Positions 5,060 through 29,699 are shown, numbered from the stretch's first letter. The stretch: DNA of 33,650 bases from Nitriliruptorales bacterium (GCA_007119305.1 SKPY01000075.1:1-33650), one strand, 5' to 3'. The notes: a model not told the origin generated them from the letters alone. Numbers and translations: made by a program.

Positions 5060-6400
5060 CTACTCGCAGGGACCGGCCGCCTCGCAGGCGTTGACCAGCT
5101 CGTCCTGGAGCGTGTCCCCATCACGGTCGGCCAGGAACAGCCCAAGCGCGGTGTCGATCTCCGCCTTGAACGCGTCCGAGGCGACCGTGCCGTGCGCGAG
5201 GCTGCCGGCCAGCTCGTCCGACTCCCAGTCGTCCATCGCAGACAGCAGGTAGTCGTCGTAGAGGCTGCGGTCCCCGTCCATGCGGGCCGGGATCGAGCCC
5301 TTGATCGGGTTGAAGGCGTCCTGGCCTTCCCGCGAGCCGGCGACCCGCAGCCAGGCGATCGCGCCTTCACGGTTGTGCGCGTTGACAGGCAGCGCGAACG
5401 AGTCCGACAGCCACTGGAAGACCCCGTCGGTGCCCGGCACCGGAGCCCAGCCGTAGCCGCCTGCGCTCGGCTCGAGCCCTTGCGCGCCGAAGTACCCGGC
5501 CGCCCAGTCGCCCATGATGTTGAAGGCCGCCTCCCCGTCGATCACCAGCTGTGTGGCCTGGTCCCACGACAGGGTCGGGGCATCGGGGTTCGTGTAGTCG
5601 AGGACCCGGTCCAAGACCTCGATCGCCTCGGCGACCTCGGGGCCGCCCCAGTCGGTCGAGCCGTCCCAGAGCCCGTCATAGGTGCTCACGTCCATCGTGC
5701 CGAGCAGCACGGTCTCGAACAGGTGCATCAGCGTCCACTGCTCGCCGAGCGCGAGCGGGATCACGCCCTGCGCCTCGAGCTCGTCGGCCACCGTGAAGAA
5801 CTCGTCCCAGGTGGTCGGGACGTCGACGCCGAACTCGTCGAGCTGCTCGGGCAGGTACCACAGGATGTTCGCGCGGTGGATGTTGACCGGCACCGAGTAG
5901 ATGTTCCCCTCGTGCGAGATCTGCGGGATGATCGCGTCCGGGAAGACCTCCAGCCAGCCCTCCTCTTCGAACAGGAAGTTGAGCGGCTCGAGCTGCCCGG
6001 CCACCACGTAGGTCCCGATGAGCTCCTGGCCGGCGTGGCCCTGCCACGACGACGGCGGATCCTCCGCCGCCAGCCGCGAGGCCAGCACGGCACGCGCAGC
6101 CGTCCCGGCACCGCCGGCGACTGCCGCGTTCACGAAGGTGTACTCCGGGTAGCGGTCTGCGAACACCTCGACCATGGCCTCCAGGCCCTCGGCCTCGCCC
6201 CCGGCGGTCCACCACGTGAACACCTCGACGGCCTCCTCCTCGGCGGGCGCCTCGAAGACGTCGTACTCGGCCGCTTCAGGGTCATCGAGCGCAGGTGCGT
6301 CCTCGGGCGGCTCGACGGGTTCGATCTCGTCGGGCTGGCCGCAGGCGCCTGCCAGCAGCAGAAGGCTGACCGCTACGGCCAGCATGCGCAGTGTTTTCAT
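5060..6400 (-). CDS. ABC transporter extracellular sugar-binding lipoprotein (family 1 solute-binding protein)
   Basis: The ATG is codon 43 of ORF 5060..6526 and is preceded by GGAGG. It has a signal peptide plus lipobox MKTLRMLAVAVSLLLLAGAC, followed by an acidic linker and then an SBP_bac_1-like body (VFTWWTAGGEAEGL...NILWY...GDWAAGYF). Confidence 0.85.
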   Translation of the reverse strand: MKTLRMLAVAVSLLLLAGACGQPDEIEPVEPPEDAPALDDPEAAEYDVFEAPAEEEAVEVFTWWTAGGEAEGLEAMVEVFADRYPEYTFVNAAVAGGAGTAARAVLASRLAAEDPPSSWQGHAGQELIGTYVVAGQLEPLNFLFEEEGWLEVFPDAIIPQISHEGNIYSVPVNIHRANILWYLPEQLDEFGVDVPTTWDEFFTVADELEAQGVIPLALGEQWTLMHLFETVLLGTMDVSTYDGLWDGSTDWGGPEVAEAIEVLDRVLDYTNPDAPTLSWDQATQLVIDGEAAFNIMGDWAAGYFGAQGLEPSAGGYGWAPVPGTDGVFQWLSDSFALPVNAHNREGAIAWLRVAGSREGQDAFNPIKGSIPARMDGDRSLYDDYLLSAMDDWESDELAGSLAHGTVASDAFKAEIDTALGLFLADRDGDTLQDELVNACEAAGPCE

Positions 6401-19291: not shown

Positions 19292-21382
<2,091 letters not shown>

Positions 21383-21391
21383 GGGTCTGGT

Positions 21392-22402
21392 GTGCGTGCG
21401 TGGGCGGTGGTTGACCCCGCTCCGATCGAGCGCAGGCCGCTGCGGGCGGTCGAGCGTGCTGTGCCCGACCCGGGTCCCGGGGAGGTGCGCGTGCGGGTGC
21501 GCGCGTGCGGGGTGTGCCGCACTGACCTGCACCTCGCTGAGGGCGATCTGCCGCCCCGGCGGCCCGGGGTGGTCCCGGGGCACGAGGCGGTGGGCACCGT
21601 CGAGGGCCGCGGGCCGGGTGCCGAGCGGTTCGCCTCCGGCGCCCGGGTCGGCGTCCCGTGGCTGCGCCGGACCTGCCACCGCTGCCGCTTCTGCCGCTCG
21701 GGCCGCGAGAACCTGTGCGTGGCCCCTGAGTTCACCGCCTGGGACGCCGACGGCGGCTTCGCCGAGTACTGCACGGTCCCGGAGGCCTACGCCTACGATC
21801 TGACGGGCCTCGACGGCGTGTTCGACGACGAGCACGCCGCGCCGCTGCTGTGCGCGGGCATCATCGGCTACCGGGCCCTGCGCCTCAGCGGCGCCGGCCA
21901 GGGGGATGCGCTCGGCATCTACGGGTTCGGCGCGTCGGCCCATCTCGCGGCGCAGGTCGCCGTCCACCGCGGCATGCGCGTGCACGTGCTGACGCGCAAC
22001 CCGCGGGCCCGGTCGCGGGCGCTCGCCCTCGGTGCGGCGAGCGCACAGGATGCCGCGGCGCCCCCGCCCGAACCGCTCGCTGCCGCGGTGCTGTTCGCCC
22101 CCGACGGCGGCCTCGTGCTCCCCGCGCTCGAGGCGCTGGACCGAGGCGGGACCCTGGCGATCGCGGGGATTCACCTCACGGACGTGCCGGCCCTCAGCTA
22201 CGAGCGGCACCTGTTCTACGAGCGCCGCGTCCGCAGCGTCACGGCCAACACCCGCGCGGACGGCGAGGAGTTCCTGCGCCTGGCCGCGGCGATCCCCGTC
22301 CGGGTGACCACGAGCCCGTACGGGCTGGACGAGGCTGACGTGGCGCTCGAAGCGCTCGCGCGGGGACGGGTGCGAGGAGCCGCGGTCCTGCTGGCGCGCT
22401 GA
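21392..22402 (+). CDS. Zinc-dependent alcohol dehydrogenase family oxidoreductase
   Basis: The catalytic Zn ligands are in CGVCRTDLH and GHE. The structural Zn motif is CHRCRFCRSGRENLC. The nucleotide-binding glycine motif is GIYGFGASAHLAAQVA. Confidence 0.85.
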   Translation: MRAWAVVDPAPIERRPLRAVERAVPDPGPGEVRVRVRACGVCRTDLHLAEGDLPPRRPGVVPGHEAVGTVEGRGPGAERFASGARVGVPWLRRTCHRCRFCRSGRENLCVAPEFTAWDADGGFAEYCTVPEAYAYDLTGLDGVFDDEHAAPLLCAGIIGYRALRLSGAGQGDALGIYGFGASAHLAAQVAVHRGMRVHVLTRNPRARSRALALGAASAQDAAAPPPEPLAAAVLFAPDGGLVLPALEALDRGGTLAIAGIHLTDVPALSYERHLFYERRVRSVTANTRADGEEFLRLAAAIPVRVTTSPYGLDEADVALEALARGRVRGAAVLLAR

Positions 22403-22476
22403 ACGCCACGCCCCGGACGTGCGGGCGGCTTCGTCCCCGGCGCTGCCGAGCGCGCACTCCCGTGACGGGCGCAGTG

Positions 22477-22905
22477 CTACGGTGCGAGCACCGCGCGGGC
22501 GGTCCACAGACCGTCATGGGGGTCGAGCTCCAGCTGCGCACCGGTGATCCCCCGCGGCGCTGCTCCCGTCGGTTGCACCACCGCGAGCGCTGCGACGTCC
22601 ACGCAACCCGCGAGTCCGCCGTCCTCGGTCTCGGCGAGGGCGATGTCGACCGGGACCACCTGCAGCAGCGCCCGCAGCTCGAGCACCTGCTCCAGCAGCT
22701 CGGAGAGCTGCTCATCCCCGGGGGCCGGTGGCAGCACCAGGGTCAGGGTCTCGGTGGTCACGACGGAGGAGGTATCGGCGAACGCCTCCACGAGTGCGCG
22801 CACCGCCTGTGCAAGGCACTCGGGCTTGGACGGCGCCCAGGCCTCGACGATGCAGCCGGCGGTGCCCGGCAGCACCCGGTGGCCGCGCTCTGCCGTTGTC
22901 GCCAT
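22477..22905 (-). CDS. Archease-like protein (divergent)
   Basis: 142 aa with GAGGAG upstream of the ATG. It is collinear with archease: HRVLPGTAGCIVEAWAPSKPECLAQAVRALVEAF aligns with the F..L.HTAD..v.a.G......F..AA.A pattern, and the C-terminal RGITGAQLELDPHDGLWTARAVL aligns with VKAvTyH.l.v....g.w.a.vv.D. The normally conserved HTAD reads GTAG here. Confidence 0.65.
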   Translation of the reverse strand: MATTAERGHRVLPGTAGCIVEAWAPSKPECLAQAVRALVEAFADTSSVVTTETLTLVLPPAPGDEQLSELLEQVLELRALLQVVPVDIALAETEDGGLAGCVDVAALAVVQPTGAAPRGITGAQLELDPHDGLWTARAVLAP

Positions 22906-23094
22906 GCGCGCTCCTCGCTCGCCTTGCCTTGAGCCTTGGGCACGCGCAGGCGTGGCGGCAAGGGCCCATCGGCCCCGCCGGGCCGGGCCGAGTGCAGCCT
23001 TGTGGAGCCGCGGAGCTGGCGGGGGACTCCAGTCCCTGTGCTCATGGCCCGTTCAGCCCTGTCGAGTGCCAGGGCGGGCCTCCAGGCTCGGCGC

Positions 23095-24099
23095 ATGGCT
23101 CCACCCACGGCGCTGCGCAGGCAGGTGCCGGCGTCCGCACACGGCGGCGGTCGGTTCGTCGTGCCGCGTGCGGAGTTCACGCCGGCCTACCTGCGCACGC
23201 ACGAGCAGGGTCTGCTGGAGCGCAAGGCCGAGGAGGCCAGAGCGCTCCTGCGGCCCTGCCGTGTCTGCCCCCGACCGTGTCGTGACGTCGATCGGCTGGC
23301 GGGTGAGGTCGGTGCCTGCCGCATCGGCCGGTGGGCGCGGGTCGCCTCCGCGTGCGTGCACCACGGCGAGGAGGAGGTGCTGCGCGGGCGGCATGGCTCC
23401 GGCACGATCTTCTTCTCGGGCTGCAACCTGCGGTGCGTGTTCTGCCAGAACGCCCAGATCAGCCAGCTGGCCATCGGTGAGGACGTCACGGCCACCGACC
23501 TCGCCGGGCTCATGCTCGACCTGCAGAAGCGCGGCTGCCACAACGTGAACCTCGTCACGCCCGAACACGTCGTGCCGCAGATCCTGGAGGCGCTGCCCCT
23601 CGCCGTGGACGCCGGCCTGCGGGTTCCGCTGGTCTACAACACCAGCGCGTACGACGGGCTGGGCAGCGTCGAGCTGCTCGACGGGGTCGTCGACGTCTAC
23701 ATGCCCGACTTCAAGCTCTGGGAGCCCGCGAGCTGCCATCGCTACCTCGGCGTGCGCGACTACCCCGACGTCGCCCGGGCAGTCATCACCGCGATGCACG
23801 CGCAGGTCGGCGACCTCATGGTCGACGAGGACGGCCTGGCGCTGCGTGGCCTGCTGGTCCGTCACCTGGTCATGCCGGGCCTGGTAGACGAGTCGCGGCG
23901 CATCCTCGAGTTCCTCGCCCTGCTGTCACGCGACACCTACGTGAACGTGATGGACCAGTACCGCCCGGCATGGCGGGTGGTGTCCACCCCGCGGTACGCC
24001 GAGCTCGCCCGGCCGGTTGCGGGCGCGGAGACGGCAGCCGCCCTGGCGCACGCGCGGGCGGTCGGCCTGTGGCGGCTCGATGCGCGCTGGGGGCGGTGA
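23095..24099 (+). CDS. PflX/COG1313-type radical SAM protein (PFL-activase homologue of unknown substrate)
   Basis: Motifs: LLRPCRVCPRPCRDVDRLAGEVGACR, HHGEEEVLRGRHGSGTIFFSGCNLRCVFCQNAQIS (CxxxCxxC), GCHNVNLVTPEHVVPQI, VPLVYNTSAYD, VDVYMPDFK, RGLLVRHLVMPG and VNVMDQYRPAW. The start is uncertain: ATG 23044, ATG 23095 and an internal GTG are all possible, and none has a strong SD. Confidence 0.8.
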   Translation: MAPPTALRRQVPASAHGGGRFVVPRAEFTPAYLRTHEQGLLERKAEEARALLRPCRVCPRPCRDVDRLAGEVGACRIGRWARVASACVHHGEEEVLRGRHGSGTIFFSGCNLRCVFCQNAQISQLAIGEDVTATDLAGLMLDLQKRGCHNVNLVTPEHVVPQILEALPLAVDAGLRVPLVYNTSAYDGLGSVELLDGVVDVYMPDFKLWEPASCHRYLGVRDYPDVARAVITAMHAQVGDLMVDEDGLALRGLLVRHLVMPGLVDESRRILEFLALLSRDTYVNVMDQYRPAWRVVSTPRYAELARPVAGAETAAALAHARAVGLWRLDARWGR

Positions 24100-24109
24100 G
24101 GCCCGCACC

Positions 24110-24760
24110 GTGGGCGCTCAACGTCTGCGGTCGCGGCGACTCGTGCCGCCGGTGGTCTGCGTGGTCACCGCGGCGGGGCTGGTGCCCGATCGCGACCACC
24201 TCGCTGTGGGCGCGGCCGCCCTGGCTGGTGGCGCGGACATGATCCAGCTGCGGGGGCCGGAGCTCGATGCGCTCGCGCTGCGTCCGCTCGCCGAGCGTCT
24301 CGCGGAACGCTGCCACGCGGCCGGGCGGCTGCTCATCGTCAACAACGCGCTGGACGTCGCGTGCACGGCCGGCGCGGATGGCGTGCACCTGGGGCAGTCC
24401 GACCACCCGGAGACCGCGCGGCGCCGCCTCGGGGACACCCTCCTGCTCGGCGTCAGCGTGGCCACCGCGGGCGAGGCCCACGCGGCCGCAGCTGCAGGCG
24501 CGGACTACGTGGCCGTGACCGTGTGGTCCACCGCGACGAAGCCAGACGCGCAACCGGTGGGATTGGCCGGCCTGGCCGAGGTCGTCACCGCGTCACCGTT
24601 GCCGACTTTGGCGATCGGGGGGATTACGGCGGGCAACTGCGGCGACGTGCTCGCCCGGGGCGCCGCCGGGATCGCCGTCGTCTCCGCGGTCGCAGGCGCC
24701 GCAGACCCCGTCACGGCCACGCGGGAGCTCGTCGCAGCCGCCCGCGCCGCAACAACCTGA
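24110..24760 (+). CDS. thiE: Thiamine-phosphate synthase family protein (ThiE/TenI fold)
   Basis: Motifs: VVCVVT...GADMIQLRGPELD, LLIVNNALDVACTAGADGVHLGQSD, LGVSVAT..EA, GADYVAVTVWSTATKPD, PTLAIGGIT and GAAGIAVVSAV. The GTG at 24110 is 10 nt after the radical SAM stop and has GGTGAGG upstream. An alternative ATG at 24080 would overlap the radical SAM gene by 20 nt. Confidence 0.75.
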   Translation: MGAQRLRSRRLVPPVVCVVTAAGLVPDRDHLAVGAAALAGGADMIQLRGPELDALALRPLAERLAERCHAAGRLLIVNNALDVACTAGADGVHLGQSDHPETARRRLGDTLLLGVSVATAGEAHAAAAAGADYVAVTVWSTATKPDAQPVGLAGLAEVVTASPLPTLAIGGITAGNCGDVLARGAAGIAVVSAVAGAADPVTATRELVAAARAATT

Positions 24761-24858
24761 CATGACCCAAGCGCCAGCGCCGCGGTCGCATGCTCCGAAT
24801 ATCCGGTTGTGGCGGTCGCGTCAGCGACCGTCATGGAGGTGCTGAGGAGGCAGACGCC

Positions 24859-25917
24859 ATGAAGAGCCCGGCAGGCAAGGTGGGCGCACGCGTGTTCGAG
24901 CAGGTCATCCTGCGCCATCTCGGTGCGCGCGACCCCGACGTCATCGTGGGCCCCGCCTACGGCGTCGACGTGGGGATCGTGCGCCTCTGCCCAGGACGCG
25001 TCGCCGCGGTGACGGCCGATCCCGTCTTCGTCGTTCCCGCCTACGGGTGGCAGCGGGCCGCGTGGTTCGCGGTGCACGTGCTCGCCTCCGACGCGGCGCT
25101 GAGCGGCTTGCCGCTGCGGTGGCTGGCCGTGGACCTCAACCTGCCGCGCGACACGAGCGACGAGGATCTCGAGGCGCTGTGGCTCGCGTGGTCGCAGGCG
25201 TGTGACGACCTCGGGGTCGCGGTCGTCGCAGGCCACACCGGTCGCTACGACGGCTGCGCCTGGCCGATGGTGGGCGGGGCGACCTGCGCGGCGGTGGGTG
25301 CCGACGACGCCTACGTCACGCCGGCGATGGCGCAGGTCGGGGATCTCCTCGTCGTCACGAAGGGGGCGGCGATCGAGGCGACGGCGCTGTTCGCCGCGAC
25401 GTTTCCCGACGCGATCGCCGAGGCCGTGGGGCACGCCGCCTGGGCGGCCGCCGACGGGCTGTTCGAGGCGATGACCGTCGTGCCCGAGGCGCGCGTCGCG
25501 GCGGAGTTCGGCTTGCGGGACGCCGGCGTGACCGCGATGCACGACGCCACCGAGGGGGGCGTGCTCGGGGGGCTGGCCGAGCTGGCAGGTGCCAGCGGCC
25601 ACGGCCTGCGCGTCGTCGCGGAGGACATCCCGGTGCGCGCTGAGGTGCGTGCCGTGTGCGCTGCGGTTGGCATCGACCCGTACGCGGCCATCTCGGAGGG
25701 CACCCTCATCGCCGCCGTCCGGCCGGCACACGCCGAGGGCTACGGTGCCGCGCTGCAGGCCGAAGGCATCGACGCCGCGATCGTGGGCGAGGTCGTGCCG
25801 GCCCGGCACGGCGCGGTGCTCGTACGCGCTGGCCGGGACGAGGTCTTGCAGCACCCGGGCGTCGACCCCTTCTGGAGCGCGTTCGACCGTTGGGCGCAGG
25901 CCCACGGCCCGTCCTGA
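24859..25917 (+). CDS. AIR synthase-related protein (PurM/HypE/ThiL/SelD superfamily)
   Basis: The ATG is codon 24 of ORF 24790..25917, with GAGGAGG 8 nt upstream. The N-domain pattern is GKVGARVFEQVI...GPAYGVDVGIV...AVTADPVF...AVHVLASDAALSG, the motif is VVAGHTG and the C-domain is MHDATEGGVLGGLAELA. Confidence 0.75.
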   Translation: MKSPAGKVGARVFEQVILRHLGARDPDVIVGPAYGVDVGIVRLCPGRVAAVTADPVFVVPAYGWQRAAWFAVHVLASDAALSGLPLRWLAVDLNLPRDTSDEDLEALWLAWSQACDDLGVAVVAGHTGRYDGCAWPMVGGATCAAVGADDAYVTPAMAQVGDLLVVTKGAAIEATALFAATFPDAIAEAVGHAAWAAADGLFEAMTVVPEARVAAEFGLRDAGVTAMHDATEGGVLGGLAELAGASGHGLRVVAEDIPVRAEVRAVCAAVGIDPYAAISEGTLIAAVRPAHAEGYGAALQAEGIDAAIVGEVVPARHGAVLVRAGRDEVLQHPGVDPFWSAFDRWAQAHGPS

Positions 25918-25948
25918 CCCCGACGCCTGCGGTGACTGGGGGTGGCGC

Positions 25949-26242
25949 TCAGTGCTTGCGGTGCTCCAGCCAGTAGGCGAGCGCCTCGAGGCGCTGCGGC
26001 GCGACGTTGAGCGCGAACTCGCAGGTCGGGGGGTCGCCGCACGCCGGGACCAGATCGTCGGTGGCGAAGTTGTACAGGCACGTCGGACAGCGGGTGTCCA
26101 GCGCCTCAGGCAGGTACGGGCAGTCGTAGTAGTGGCAGCCGCGTGCGCCCTCCCCGGTGGCGAGGTCGTGGTCGCAGAAGGGGCACTGCGTGAACGACAA
26201 CAGCTGTTCCAGCTCCTCCTGGCGGGTCCTCGGCTTCATCAT
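25949..26242 (-). CDS. Small cysteine-rich protein with two CPxC-x12-C-x4/5-C modules (function unknown)
   Basis: This is the 96-97 aa tail of ORF 25949..26530, starting at tandem ATGs (26242/26239). GGAGGTGG lies immediately upstream. The sequence is MMKPRTRQEELEQLLSFTQCPFCDHDLATGEGARGCHYYDCPYLPEALDTRCPTCLYNFATDDLVPACGDPPTCEF..., with eight Cys in a duplicated spacing. Confidence 0.55.
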   Translation of the reverse strand: MMKPRTRQEELEQLLSFTQCPFCDHDLATGEGARGCHYYDCPYLPEALDTRCPTCLYNFATDDLVPACGDPPTCEFALNVAPQRLEALAYWLEHRKH

Positions 26243-26429
26243 CCACCTCCATGAGGTCCGCAGGGTCTCCCTGAAGGGTCGTTGCTCGCGGGGCTGCGCG
26301 GCAGGGCCGAAGGTCACGCGCGCTCGGACCGACCGGCACCCCCGCAGGCGGCCGGCCGGCGGGTCGGTGGCGCCGCGTGGAGGGCGCGCGGTAGCGTCAG
26401 GGCCACAGCGACCTGCAAGGAGGAAGCCG

Positions 26430-26726
26430 GTGACGCTTTCCGATGACGACGTGCGCCACGTGGCGCGGCTGGCACGCCTGGATCTCAGCGACGAGGCAGT
26501 GGAACAGCTGCGCTCGCAGCTGGCGGACATCCTGGCCTACGCCGAGCAGGTGGGGGAGGTCGCCACCGCAGACGTCCCCCCGATGCGTCATCCCTTCGGC
26601 CTGCGCAACGTCATGCGGGAGGACCTCGCGGGGGAGTCGCTGCCGCGTGACGAGGCGATCAGCGCCGCCCCCGAAGCCGAGGACGGGCGCTTCCGCGTGC
26701 CGCGGATCGTGGAGGCCGAGCAGTGA
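26430..26726 (+). CDS. gatC: Asp/Glu-tRNA(Asn/Gln) amidotransferase subunit C
   Basis: The GTG is codon 92 of ORF 26157..26726, with AAGGAGGA upstream. [39 protein letters not shown] is the canonical GatC sequence. It overlaps the gatA start. Confidence 0.9.
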
Positions 26727-28210
26727 TCGACCTCGTCACCAGGAGCGCCCTCGAGCTGCGCGACCTCGTCGCTGCGGGCGAGGTGAGCGCGGTGGACGTC
26801 GCGACGGCGCACCTCGAGCGGATTCACGCCACCGACGAGCGGGTCGGCGCCTTCCTGCGCACCCTCGACGACGAGGCGCTCGCCCACGCTGCTGACATCG
26901 ACCGGCGCCGGGCGGCCGGTGAGGACCTCGGCATGCTCGCCGGCGTGCCGCTGGCAGTGAAGGACCTGCTGTGCACGCGGGGCGTCGAGACGACGGCGGG
27001 ATCGCGGATCCTCGCGGACTACCGGCCCCCCTACGACGCCACCGCGGTCATCCATGCCCGCGAGGCCGACGCCGTCATCATCGGCAAGACGAACATGGAC
27101 GAGTTCGCCATGGGCTCGTCGTGCGAGAACTCGGCGTTCTTCCCGACCCGCAACCCGTGGGACCTCGGCCGTGTGCCCGGCGGGTCGTCGGGCGGCTCGG
27201 CGGCTGCGGTCGCGGCCTTTCAGGCCCCGCTCGCGCTCGGCACGGACACCGGCGGGTCGATCCGGCAACCGGCGTCGCTGTGCGGGCTGGTGGGAGTGAA
27301 GCCCACGTACGGCCTCGTCAGCCGCTACGGGCTCATCGCGTTCGCCTCGTCCCTCGACCAGATCGGTCCGTTCGCCCGCACTGTCGTGGACGCCGCGGAA
27401 CTGCTCACGGTGATCGCCCGGCCCGACCCGCGGGATTCGACGTCCATCCCGAAGCCGCCGCCGAACCTGCTCGCCGGCCTCGACGACGGAGCCGACGGCC
27501 TGCGGGTCGGGGTGGTGGCGGAGTTCTTCGGCGACGGGCTCGAAGCGGGCGTGCGCACCCGGGTCACCGAAGCCGTCGAGCGCCTCGCCGGGCTGGGCGC
27601 GGACGTCGTCGAGGTAAGCCTGCCGCACGCACCCTACGGCCTGCCGGCGTACTACCTCATCGCCCCCAGCGAGTGCTCGAGCAACCTCGCGCGCTACGAC
27701 GGCGTGCGCTACGGCCTGCGCGAGGAGGGGGCGACGAGCGCCGCGATGATGGCCGCCACCCGCGGCGCCGGCTTCGGCACGGAGGTCAAGCGCCGGCTGA
27801 TGATCGGCACGTACGCGCTGTCGGCGGGCTACTACGACGCCTACTACGCCCAGGCGCAGCGGGTGCGCACGCTGATCGCGCGCGACTTCGACGCGGTCTT
27901 CGCGAACTGCGACGTGATCGTCGGCCCGACCGCCCCGACGGCCGCGTTCCCGCTCGGCGCGAAGACCGACGATCCGCTCGCGATGTACTTGAACGACATC
28001 TACTCGGTGCCGGCGAGCCTCGCGGGCATCCCGGCCATGAACCTGCCCGTCGGCCTCGACGACGACGGCCTGCCCGTCGGGCTGCAGCTCATGGCGCCGA
28101 TGCTCGACGAGCCCGTGATGCTGCGCGTCGCCCGGGCGCTCGAGGCGGCCGTCGGGTTCGCGACGACCCCGCGAGGGCCGGAGGCGCTCGAGGCCCCGGC
28201 TGCTGCCTAG
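26723..28210 (+). CDS. gatA: Asp/Glu-tRNA(Asn/Gln) amidotransferase subunit A
   Basis: It has the amidase signature [13 protein letters not shown]...[13 protein letters not shown] and [13 protein letters not shown]. Confidence 0.93.
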
Positions 28211-28220
28211 GAGGAGCGCA

Positions 28221-29699
28221 GTGACCGACACGCCCCGTGCCGCGCCCGCCGAGGAAGCCTGGGAGGCTGTCATCGGCCTCGAGGTTCACGTCGAGCTGGC
28301 GACGGCGACGAAGATGTTCTGCGGCTGCTCGACGGACTTCGGCGGCGCGCCGAACACTCGCACGTGCCCGGTGTGCCTCGGTCAGCCCGGCACGCTGCCG
28401 GTCACGAACCGTGGTGCCGTGGAGAGCGCCATCCGCCTCGGCCTGGCGCTCGGCTGCGACATCGCCCCGTCCAGCCAGTTCCACCGCAAGAACTACTTCT
28501 ATCCCGACATGCCGAAGAACTACCAGATCTCCCAGTACGACGTGCCCATCTGCCGGGGCGGGGCGCTCGAGGTCAGCACCGACACGGGCACCACGACGGT
28601 CGGCATCACCCGCGTCCACATGGAAGAGGACACCGGCAAGAGCCTGCACATCGGAGCGACGGGCCGGCTGCACGGCGCCGAGTACTCGCTCGTGGACTAC
28701 AACCGGGCCGGCATCCCGTTGCTCGAGATCGTCTCCGAGCCCGACATCCGCTCGGCGGAGGAGGCCGCCGCCTACGTCGCTGAGCTGCGCGCCATCGTCC
28801 TCGCGCTGGGCATCAGCGACGCGAAGCTCGAGGAAGGCTCGATGCGCTGCGACGCCAACGTGTCGATCCGCCCCCGGGGCTCGGGGGCCTACGGCACCCG
28901 AGCTGAGGTGAAGAACCTGAACAGCCTGCGCAGTCTGCGGCGCGCCGTCGCCTACGAGATCGAGCGCCAGGTCACCCACCTCGAGGACGGCGGCGAGGTC
29001 GTCCAGGAGACCCGCCACTGGGACGAGGACGGTGGCCGCACCTACACCCTGCGGACGAAGGAGACCACCGAGGACTACCGCTACTTCCCCGACCCCGACC
29101 TCGTGCCCATCGAGCCCGATCCCGCCTGGATCGAGGAGATCCGGGCCAGCCTGCCGGAGCTGCCGGCCGTGACGCGCGCGCGGCTCATGGAGGTCCATGG
29201 GCTGTCGCGGGAGCAGGTGGCCGTGCTGGCCGGCGCCGGTCTCGTCGCGGTCCTCGAGGAGGCGGTCGAGGCGGGCGCAGAGGCCGGTGAGGCCACGAAC
29301 TGGTTGACCAACGAGGTCGTCGCGTGGGCGGGGGAGCGCGACGCTGACCCCGCCCGCGCGCTTGCGGGCGTGCACCTGGCCGAGCTGCTCGCGCTGGTGG
29401 CCGACGGGACGCTGTCGAAGAAGCTCGCGCGCGAGGTGCTCACCGACGTGCTCGAGGGCGGCGGCACACCCCGCGAGGTCGTCGCCGAGCGCGGGCTCGA
29501 GCAGCTGTCGGACGAGGCCGAGCTCGCGGCGGTCTGCGACCAGGTCATCGCCGACAACGCCGAGGCCGCCGAGGAGGTCCGCCAGGGCAACGCAAAGGCC
29601 ATCGGTGCGCTCGTGGGTGGGGTGATGCGGGCCACCCAGGGCAAGGCGAACCCCCAGCTGGCCAACAAGCTCCTGCGGGAGCGGCTCGCCGCGGAGTGA
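28221..29699 (+). CDS. gatB: Asp/Glu-tRNA(Asn/Gln) amidotransferase subunit B
   Basis: AGGAGGAG lies upstream of the GTG. Motifs: WEAVIGLEVHVEL.T.TKMFCGC, CPVCLGQPGTLP, NYFYPDMPKNYQISQY, MEEDTGKS and a YqeY-like C-terminus. Confidence 0.93.
   Translation: MTDTPRAAPAEEAWEAVIGLEVHVELATATKMFCGCSTDFGGAPNTRTCPVCLGQPGTLPVTNRGAVESAIRLGLALGCDIAPSSQFHRKNYFYPDMPKNYQISQYDVPICRGGALEVSTDTGTTTVGITRVHMEEDTGKSLHIGATGRLHGAEYSLVDYNRAGIPLLEIVSEPDIRSAEEAAAYVAELRAIVLALGISDAKLEEGSMRCDANVSIRPRGSGAYGTRAEVKNLNSLRSLRRAVAYEIERQVTHLEDGGEVVQETRHWDEDGGRTYTLRTKETTEDYRYFPDPDLVPIEPDPAWIEEIRASLPELPAVTRARLMEVHGLSREQVAVLAGAGLVAVLEEAVEAGAEAGEATNWLTNEVVAWAGERDADPARALAGVHLAELLALVADGTLSKKLAREVLTDVLEGGGTPREVVAERGLEQLSDEAELAAVCDQVIADNAEAAEEVRQGNAKAIGALVGGVMRATQGKANPQLANKLLRERLAAE

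Follow-up and report, generated by a model that had tools for sequence, protein, structure and literature searches.

The 33,650-nucleotide (nt) stretch analyzed here (hereafter, the window) corresponds to contig C120 in a metagenome-assembled genome (MAG) of a Nitriliruptorales bacterium (GCA_007119305.1, SKPY01000075.1:1-33650; 3.4 Mb in 547 contigs, 83% completeness, about 72% GC). It contains a five-gene block that consists of an archease gene, a gene for a radical S-adenosylmethionine (SAM) protein, the thiamin-phosphate synthase gene thiE, a PurM-fold gene and a small Cys-rich open reading frame (ORF), and is bounded by ligA and a Zn-alcohol dehydrogenase gene on one side and gatCAB on the other. 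The present analysis is concerned with the three central genes, and particularly with the PurM-superfamily product encoded next to thiE (hereafter, the PurM-like protein), for which the features are as follows:

23095..24099, plus strand: radical SAM gene of the PflX/COG1313 type, 334 amino acids (aa), assigned by motif, Pfam and homologs
24095..24112, plus strand: junction of the radical SAM gene and thiE, read directly in the sequence
24110..24760, plus strand: thiE, assigned by TIGR00693 and Pfam TMP-TENI
24761..24858, plus strand: spacer of 98 nt with GAGGAGG at 24844-24850, read directly in the sequence
24859..25917, plus strand: PurM-superfamily gene ('AIR synthase family protein'), 352 aa, assigned by Pfam AIRS and AIRS_C

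The layout given in the preliminary description of this DNA was borne out, with the radical SAM gene, thiE and the PurM-fold gene all on the plus strand, and a second, independent assembly has the same layout downstream of thiE (thiE, a 98-nt gap, the PurM-like gene, a 31-nt gap and a 96-aa minus-strand gene). The start of thiE is most likely the GTG at 24110, located 8 nt past a GGTGAGG sequence (24095-24101) that spans the stop codon of the radical SAM gene (24097-24099); the alternative start, ATG at 24080, would result in a 20-nt overlap with that gene. Either start gives tight coupling, as had been claimed for the translation of this pair. The ATG of the PurM-like gene at 24859 lies 98 nt beyond the thiE stop codon (24758-24760), and both this gap and the strong GAGGAGG site of its own, which had been described earlier, are read in the sequence.

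ThiE scored 152 bits with TIGR00693, passing the equivalog cut-off of 145.1 bits, and 161.5 bits with Pfam TMP-TENI. The gene is the second thiE copy in the genome, with 33% identity to the other thiE on contig C27, which scored 173 bits. Among 13 Actinomycetota genomes carrying the PurM-like gene (hereafter, genomes with this gene are called carriers), the thiE linked to it was the sole thiE in 11, including one complete chromosome. Given this equivalog score and the absence of any further thiE from 11 of these 13 carriers, the window ThiE is predicted to be an ordinary thiamin-phosphate synthase, and the idea that the ThiE fold has been recruited to different chemistry, which had been raised as one possible reading, is not upheld.

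The PurM-like protein passed both Pfam cut-offs (AIRS, 36.6 versus 24 bits; AIRS_C, 74.1 versus 23.1 bits) and scored far below the cut-offs of the hidden Markov models (HMMs) for HypE (TIGR02124, 75.3 versus 251.6 bits), ThiL (TIGR01379, 65.6 versus 184.15 bits) and SelD (TIGR00476, 50.7 versus 125 bits). In a superfamily tree of 50 sequences, for which ThiL, HypE, SelD and PurM were drawn from carrier genomes, the PurM-like family formed a separate clade on the HypE side, with a Shimodaira-Hasegawa-like approximate likelihood-ratio test (SH-aLRT) value of 99, and ThiL and SelD formed another clade (SH-aLRT, 95), which contains the real ThiL of the source genome. The AlphaFold model of the PurM-like protein exhibited a two-domain PurM fold with a predicted local distance difference test (pLDDT) score of 96.3, and its best matches in the PDB were HypE (template modeling scores, or TM-scores, of 0.76-0.79), followed by ThiL (0.62-0.77), all top matches belonging to the PurM superfamily; no solved structure was found for the family itself. 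The PurM-like protein is, accordingly, distinct from ThiL, HypE and SelD and belongs to an uncharacterised clade nearest HypE. The suggestion that it lies nearer to a HypE/SelD-related clade than to ThiL thus agrees with the phylogeny, as HypE was the nearest relative by HMM scores, tree and fold, with SelD reaching only 50.7 bits. The family comprises 329 clusters at 50% identity (E<=1e-30), ranging from Actinomycetota to Thermoplasmata and haloarchaea, and it divides in the tree into two subclades, which may differ in substrate.

With regard to catalytic residues, D60, D77, D101, D185, D252, G148, G257, G304 and G333 align with conserved columns of the ThiL, HypE and SelD rows, where D60, D77, D101, D252, G148 and G257 are invariant, and the PurM row has most of these Asp and Gly columns, including D77, D101 and D185, but not D60 or D252. 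We take these conserved positions to be metal or ATP ligands, and the PurM-like protein looks like an active ATP-using enzyme because the shared Asp and Gly columns are kept. At the position of the Cys/Sec-Lys of SelD, it has G29-K30. Its C-terminus (...DRWAQAHGPS) is a tail without cysteine, nor is a C-terminal Cys conserved in the consensus of the family.

Database labels for the family are 'AIR synthase family protein' or HypE, the latter being used by the Joint Genome Institute (JGI). HypE (TIGR02124; PDB 2Z1E, 3VYT and 2I6R) shares the G-K motif and E264 with the PurM-like protein. Unlike HypE, however, the PurM-like protein does not have the C-terminal cysteine that is carbamoylated, and its neighbors in the window are thiE, the radical SAM gene, the archease gene, ligA and gatCAB, with no hyp gene, whereas carriers hold a true HypE separately. 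The HypE annotation was therefore rejected on the basis of the HMM score, the absent C-terminal Cys and the gene context. ThiL (TIGR01379; PDB 3C9T and 1VQV) is similar in its thiamin link, in the two-domain PurM-superfamily fold indicated by the TM-scores above and in the shared Asp and Gly columns, but it differs in clade, in HMM score and in motif, as the PurM-like protein has GHT and HDxTEGG and ThiL has GDT or GNT.

To place the family in its genomic context, we drew on species-representative genomes and examined the best 80 of their related loci. As a result, thiE was found to adjoin the PurM-like gene in 61 of the 80 loci, distributed over Actinomycetota, Chloroflexota, Bipolaricaulota, Kryptonia, Ignavibacteria and Thermoplasmata. 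In Actinomycetota thiE precedes the PurM-like gene, and in archaea and the other bacteria it follows it. Of 78 loci, 49 have a thiamin pyrophosphate (TPP) riboswitch immediately before the operon and on its strand, as judged by a custom covariance model built from six Rfam-verified TPP riboswitches, and Rfam gives one in 5 of 11 loci. The operon neighbors include genes for a CytX-like permease, ThiXYZ-like ATP-binding cassette (ABC) transporters, thiamin pyrophosphokinase (TPK) and ThiT (134 bits versus a cut-off of 108), and the gene orders are as follows:

Bipolaricaulota and Fraserbacteria: riboswitch, ABC ATPase, permease, ThiY-type binding protein, methyltransferase, PurM-like, ThiE
Thermoplasmata: riboswitch, sometimes a CytX-like permease, PurM-like, ThiE
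Nitrososphaerota: ThiT, PurM-like
Ignavibacteria: riboswitch, TonB-dependent receptor, methyltransferase, PurM-like, ThiE, TPK
Actinomycetota: riboswitch, thiE, PurM-like, PfkB kinase, PsuG-like enzyme

Furthermore, fusions with ThiN exist in both orders, PurM-like::ThiN and ThiN::PurM-like (proteins P0130, P0191 and P0158; locus L125:2798-6566), of which the former mirrors the ThiD::ThiN architecture; the fusion gene in L125 is divergent from thiC and from the gene for a 295-aa AIRS protein, which is probably ThiL. Taken together, the adjacency to thiE, the TPP riboswitches, the operon neighbors, the ThiN fusions and the linkage to a sole thiE tie the PurM-like family firmly to thiamin metabolism. 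The non-thiamin context ascribed to the window is hence a local matter only, given that 49 of 78 related loci have a riboswitch at the head of the pair, that transporters for thiamin or hydroxymethylpyrimidine (HMP) adjoin it and that ThiN fusions exist.

Several features of these loci are of interest in their own right. A chain of thiE, the PurM-like gene, a PfkB-family kinase gene and a gene for an Indigoidine_A/PsuG-like C-glycosidase, headed by a TPP riboswitch, is present in L046:5286-8951, in L014 and L044 and in about 20 further loci of Actinomycetota, the genomes of which are without ThiC, ThiG, Thi4 and ThiM; pseudouridine-type enzymes are thereby placed under TPP control. Of the 80 loci, 27 have the PfkB gene next in order and 21 have the PsuG-like gene. 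A class I SAM methyltransferase gene (Methyltransf_11, BioC/UbiE-like) directly precedes the PurM-like-ThiE pair in Kryptonia, Ignavibacteria, Bipolaricaulota and Fraserbacteria (L081:5281-7725, L089:5237-7714, L069:5304-7707 and L064:5180-7791), and ThiD, ThiC, ThiG, Thi4 and ThiM were not found in the four genomes; a methyltransferase is required for no known thiamin step. In archaeal MAGs (Bathyarchaeota and Thermoplasmata-type), matches of 78-100 bits to the custom TPP model are located directly before the PurM-like gene or a gene for a small membrane protein (L077:1723-1836; L070, L071, L074, L075, L078, L084 and L091 at about 5840-5970), that of L075 being confirmed by Rfam. In haloarchaea, the PurM-like gene is directly upstream of a ThiD-ThiN fusion gene and not of thiE (G026:C1:291228-294426, which is locus L090, and G025:C38:16780-18910), and the former genome has two tandem PurM-like paralogs. 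For the Actinomycetota loci without a riboswitch, the upstream gene content was not readable from ORF lists, which are too noisy at high GC.

The window itself has no TPP riboswitch. None was detected by Rfam at the gathering threshold in the whole window, by RF00059 at E<=10 over 22300-24900 or by the custom covariance model, which matches 49 related loci, in the window; the reported lack of such a leader upstream is thus confirmed by three scans, and a degenerate TPP riboswitch was rejected as all three were negative. The sole TPP riboswitch of the source genome is located at C27:1755-1867, between the other thiE and thiG. The genome also encodes a true ThiL (C319:22438-23403, 282 bits), and thiD is present elsewhere as well as thiG, whereas ThiC and ThiM were not found, absences that are uncertain in a MAG of 83% completeness. 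Of the canonical thiamin genes for which a check had been proposed, thiL, thiD, thiG and another thiE were thus found, and thiC was not. Because canonical thiL and thiE genes exist elsewhere and the PurM-like protein is outside the ThiL clade, the window does not represent an ordinary thiE-thiL pair.

To gain further insight into the role of the PurM-like gene, we prepared a phyletic table of the thiamin pathway in 30 other carrier genomes, in which the absences of ThiD were confirmed with the broader Pfam Phos_pyr_kin model. ThiL was present in about 28 (25 over the cut-off and three as split genes), ThiD in 19 over the cut-off and in one more as a frameshifted gene, Thi4 in 5, ThiC and ThiG in 4 each, TPK in 3 and ThiM in none. 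As ThiL is present in nearly all carriers, the PurM-like family is not a ThiL replacement, and the substrate of the PurM-like protein must differ from that of ThiL because the two co-exist; the non-orthologous ThiL replacement, which had been the other possible reading, is likewise at odds with the true ThiL of the source genome. The table indicated three kinds of gaps. In 12 of the 13 Actinomycetota and 2 Thermoplasmata carriers, ThiD, ThiE and ThiL are present and ThiG, Thi4 and ThiM are absent, leaving no known source of thiazole phosphate. Ten of the 30 carriers are without any ThiD/PdxK-type kinase; in two of these, G016 and G018, the other steps are all covered, by ThiC, a thiazole synthase, ThiE and ThiL, and only the kinase for HMP phosphate (HMP-P) is missing. 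In G029 and G030, finally, ThiL and the riboswitch-controlled PurM-like gene are all that was found.

A ThiC-independent route to the thiamin pyrimidine was also considered and rejected: 26 of the 30 carriers are without ThiC, but so are 38 of 41 relatives of the source genome in its class-level group (G031-G070), of which only 2 have the PurM-like gene. The absence of ThiC is therefore a trait of the lineage and not evidence for a new route, because relatives without the PurM-like gene also do not have it. The presence of ThiC in only 3 of these 41 genomes points to a wide dependence of the lineage on external thiamin pyrimidine. The thiE-PurM-like pair is rare in this group (2 of 41), which, together with 62-73% identity to other Actinomycetota MAGs, suggests that the pair is a horizontally acquired extra copy without a riboswitch.

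The radical SAM gene that precedes the pair is open from 22936 to 24099. A start at 23095 is likelier than the earlier one at 23044, because the gene is called with 334 aa in the database (P0274), the homologs are about 335 aa and the codon-position GC is typical only after about 23095; the ATG at 23044, from which the gene had been taken to begin, is in frame and possible but less favored. The protein has the motif CNLRCVFC (CX3CX2C) and an N-terminal Cys cluster, and it scored 29.1 bits with Pfam Radical_SAM, just under the cut-off of 29.5, and 23.9 bits with Fer4_12; PF04055 is given in the database record for the product and in those of all listed homologs. The homologs, with 62-75% identity, are from Actinomycetota, Blastocatellia, Verrucomicrobiia and Chloroflexota and are named only 'radical SAM protein' or 'putative pyruvate formate lyase activating enzyme'. 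Conservation of this PflX/COG1313 family across phyla is strikingly high, and it has no conserved neighbors.

This gene was found in none of the 80 PurM-like loci. Of 24 genomes of the same family, 4 have an ortholog, with differing neighbors and no thiE among them, and six database homologs adjoin unrelated genes, including those for a transposase, SufBD and sugar metabolism. The radical SAM-thiE arrangement was not seen in the 80 related loci, 40 relatives or the six database homologs. Because it is missing from the PurM-like loci and its orthologs have other, variable neighbors, the radical SAM gene is an incidental neighbor of thiE, and the pairing is specific to the source genome. The supposed radical SAM partner of the preliminary description is hence set aside, and there was no sign of participation of the enzyme in thiamin chemistry in the loci and homologs compared. 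Co-transcription of the radical SAM gene with thiE and the PurM-like gene is nevertheless plausible because of the tight radical SAM/thiE junction. No terminator-like site was found on the plus strand over 22300-26800, and a promoter scan, which is uninformative at 72% GC, returned 0 sites.

From these results, we propose that 24110-25917 may be an accessory thiamin precursor-salvage module, in which a PurM-like enzyme of the kinase type feeds ThiE, and that the pair was acquired horizontally behind an unrelated radical SAM gene, a reading to which we give about an even chance. ThiE would be a working thiamin-phosphate synthase, and the PurM-fold protein would be an ATP-dependent kinase-type enzyme giving it a phosphorylated substrate. 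In the actinobacterial/Thermoplasmata subclade, the preferred substrate would be the alcohol of hydroxyethyl-thiazole (HET), the phosphorylation of which is the job of ThiM; a close second would be the conversion of HMP-P to HMP diphosphate (HMP-PP), the second reaction of ThiD, by the same phosphate-to-diphosphate transfer as that by ThiL. The pair would have arrived by horizontal transfer without the usual TPP riboswitch, landing behind the unrelated, conserved PflX-type radical SAM gene. We infer the kinase activity, the substrate and the horizontal acquisition from the comparisons above. That the PurM-like protein is an undescribed vitamin B1 enzyme, a PurM-fold kinase replacing ThiM, ThiD or ThiK, seems to us somewhat more probable than not.

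Known systems offer partial parallels for such a module. With ThiD and its archaeal ThiN fusion (ThiDN), the PurM-like gene shares a position beside, or fused to, a thiamin-phosphate synthase and after HMP importers, and in the 10 of 30 carriers that show a ThiD gap the enzyme could take the place of ThiD; unlike ThiD, however, it is of the PurM-type and not the ribokinase-type fold, and ThiD is also present in 19 of the 30 carriers and the source genome. With ThiM and the thiM-thiE operons and fusions (yeast THI6), it shares the operon logic of riboswitch, thiE and kinase, but the folds are unrelated, no ThiW thiazole transporter was seen beside the PurM-like gene and the source genome can make thiazole via ThiG. 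CblS, encoded beside its importer CblT, which is of the energy-coupling factor (ECF) type, is a PurM-superfamily alpha-ribazole kinase that phosphorylates the alcohol of a salvaged precursor. The layout of L068 and L088 resembles this pair, although the cofactor, B12, is different; the likeness drawn here is one of layout.

Several observations weigh against the salvage-kinase proposal. The methyltransferase conserved in four phyla, and the PfkB kinase and PsuG-like enzyme conserved in Actinomycetota, are not explained by a simple kinase model, and CblS is the only precedent that we can name for phosphorylation of an alcohol within the PurM superfamily. No single substrate was able to close every pathway hole in the 30-genome table: carriers with de novo thiazole synthesis, including the source genome (thiG), need no thiazole kinase; and ThiD exists in 19 of the 30 carriers, in the source genome and in a fusion-bearing genome. 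In two MAGs (G029 and G030), ThiL accompanies a PurM-like gene that follows a TPP riboswitch, and ThiE, ThiN, ThiD and TPK are missing, which fits a thiamin kinase better. The profiled genomes are, moreover, MAGs, so that absences are uncertain, and related Thermoplasmata-type genomes show opposite pathway holes.

Among the alternatives, the one to which we give most weight, while considering it unlikely, is that the enzyme acts on a thiamin fragment, salvaged or damaged, by PurM-type chemistry other than that of a kinase, in which the neighboring methyltransferase or PfkB/PsuG-like enzymes would take part; for instance, an amide or lactam oxygen of formylaminopyrimidine or an oxo-derivative would be activated with ATP, as is done by PurL, PurM and HypE. 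The amide-activating HypE is the nearest relative by sequence, tree and fold and shares the N-terminal G-K motif and E264 with the family, and the methyltransferase-PurM-like-ThiE triad in four phyla and the thiE-PurM-like-PfkB-PsuG operon in Actinomycetota are both conserved. The same operons also include a ThiY (NMT1/THI5-type) binding protein; ThiY-type proteins bind formylaminopyrimidine or HMP. However, we can name no specific substrate for such chemistry, it would not fill the missing kinase steps of many carriers, and the window has no methyltransferase, PfkB or PsuG neighbor. Less probable still is a thiamin kinase similar to ThiK, converting thiamin to thiamin monophosphate (TMP) and trapping imported thiamin for ThiL, with ThiE adjacent only as a fellow TMP-maker. 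The profile of G029 and G030 fits this activity, as do the presence of ThiL in essentially all carriers with TPK in only 3 of 30, the ThiT thiamin transporter gene directly upstream in the Nitrososphaerota locus, the order of L088 (TPP riboswitch, ECF S-component-like gene, PurM-like gene) and the hydroxyethyl acceptor group common to thiamin and HET. It would, on the other hand, leave ThiD and ThiE without a source of thiazole phosphate in the Actinomycetota and Thermoplasmata carriers, and the fusion with ThiN of an enzyme making the same product would be unusual; CytX-like or ThiXYZ-like pyrimidine importers adjoin in several loci, and most of the loci in its favor belong to the subclade other than that of the window.

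Two further alternatives appear very improbable. The PurM-like protein could be a divergent ThiL isozyme, converting TMP to TPP, which would make the window an ordinary thiE-thiL pair; it is of the same superfamily, has ThiL structures among its best fold matches (TM-scores of 0.62-0.77), is encoded next to thiE and has a near-C-terminal aromatic residue (W362) common only to ThiL in the alignment. Its score of 65.6 bits against the ThiL cut-off of 184 and its position outside the ThiL clade argue against this, and a second ThiL would be redundant everywhere, given the true ThiL in the source genome and about 28 of 30 carriers. The least probable, by a small step, is a joint new pathway of the radical SAM, ThiE and PurM-like enzymes, which would lead either to the thiamin pyrimidine independently of ThiC or to a non-thiamin product. 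In its favor are the tight coupling of the radical SAM gene with thiE and the failure to find ThiC, itself a radical SAM enzyme, in the source MAG; however, that MAG is 83% complete, ThiC is absent in 38 of 41 relatives, pair or no pair, none of the 80 related loci contains the radical SAM gene, and the orthologs of this gene in same-family genomes (4 of 24) and its closest homologs have unrelated neighbors.

What is new in these results is a PurM-fold enzyme family with a role unassigned so far within the well-known thiamin pathway; full-text literature searches found no published work on it. Thiamin auxotrophy and the exchange of precursors shape soil and aquatic microbial communities, and predicting the use of precursors from genomes hinges on knowing the enzymes. 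The family is widely mislabelled HypE and sits in TPP-riboswitch operons of genomes without ThiM, ThiD or both. Identification of the reaction that it catalyzes would fill a hole that recurs in reconstructions of the B1 pathway and would correct thousands of annotations. If the PurM-fold kinase is real, it would explain the use of thiamin-phosphate synthase by uncultured bacteria and archaea without the classical kinases. The result for the window itself is more modest, as it holds an extra copy of the module, without a riboswitch and less striking than the riboswitch-controlled instances, and the exotic-looking link to a radical SAM enzyme is incidental.

The remaining genes of the block and its flanks are as follows:

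19310-21382: ligA, flank of the block
21392-22402: Zn-alcohol dehydrogenase gene, flank of the block
22477..22905, minus strand: archease-family gene, Pfam Archease 39.9 bits versus a cut-off of 25, with coding-typical codon-position GC
25949..26242, minus strand: small Cys-rich ORF, 97 aa, CPFC and CPTC motifs, codon-position GC 0.64/0.47/0.94
26723-28210: gatA, flank of the block
28221-29699: gatB, flank of the block

The archease gene is divergent from the radical SAM gene and is a flank outside the thiamin module; archease is a cofactor of the RtcB ligase, and no rtcB was seen in the annotated part of the window. The small Cys-rich ORF had no match in Pfam or NCBIfam. It is convergent with the PurM-like gene and has the Cys pattern CPFC...C..C...CPTC...C...C, and its position is occupied in the independent assembly by the 96-aa minus-strand gene.

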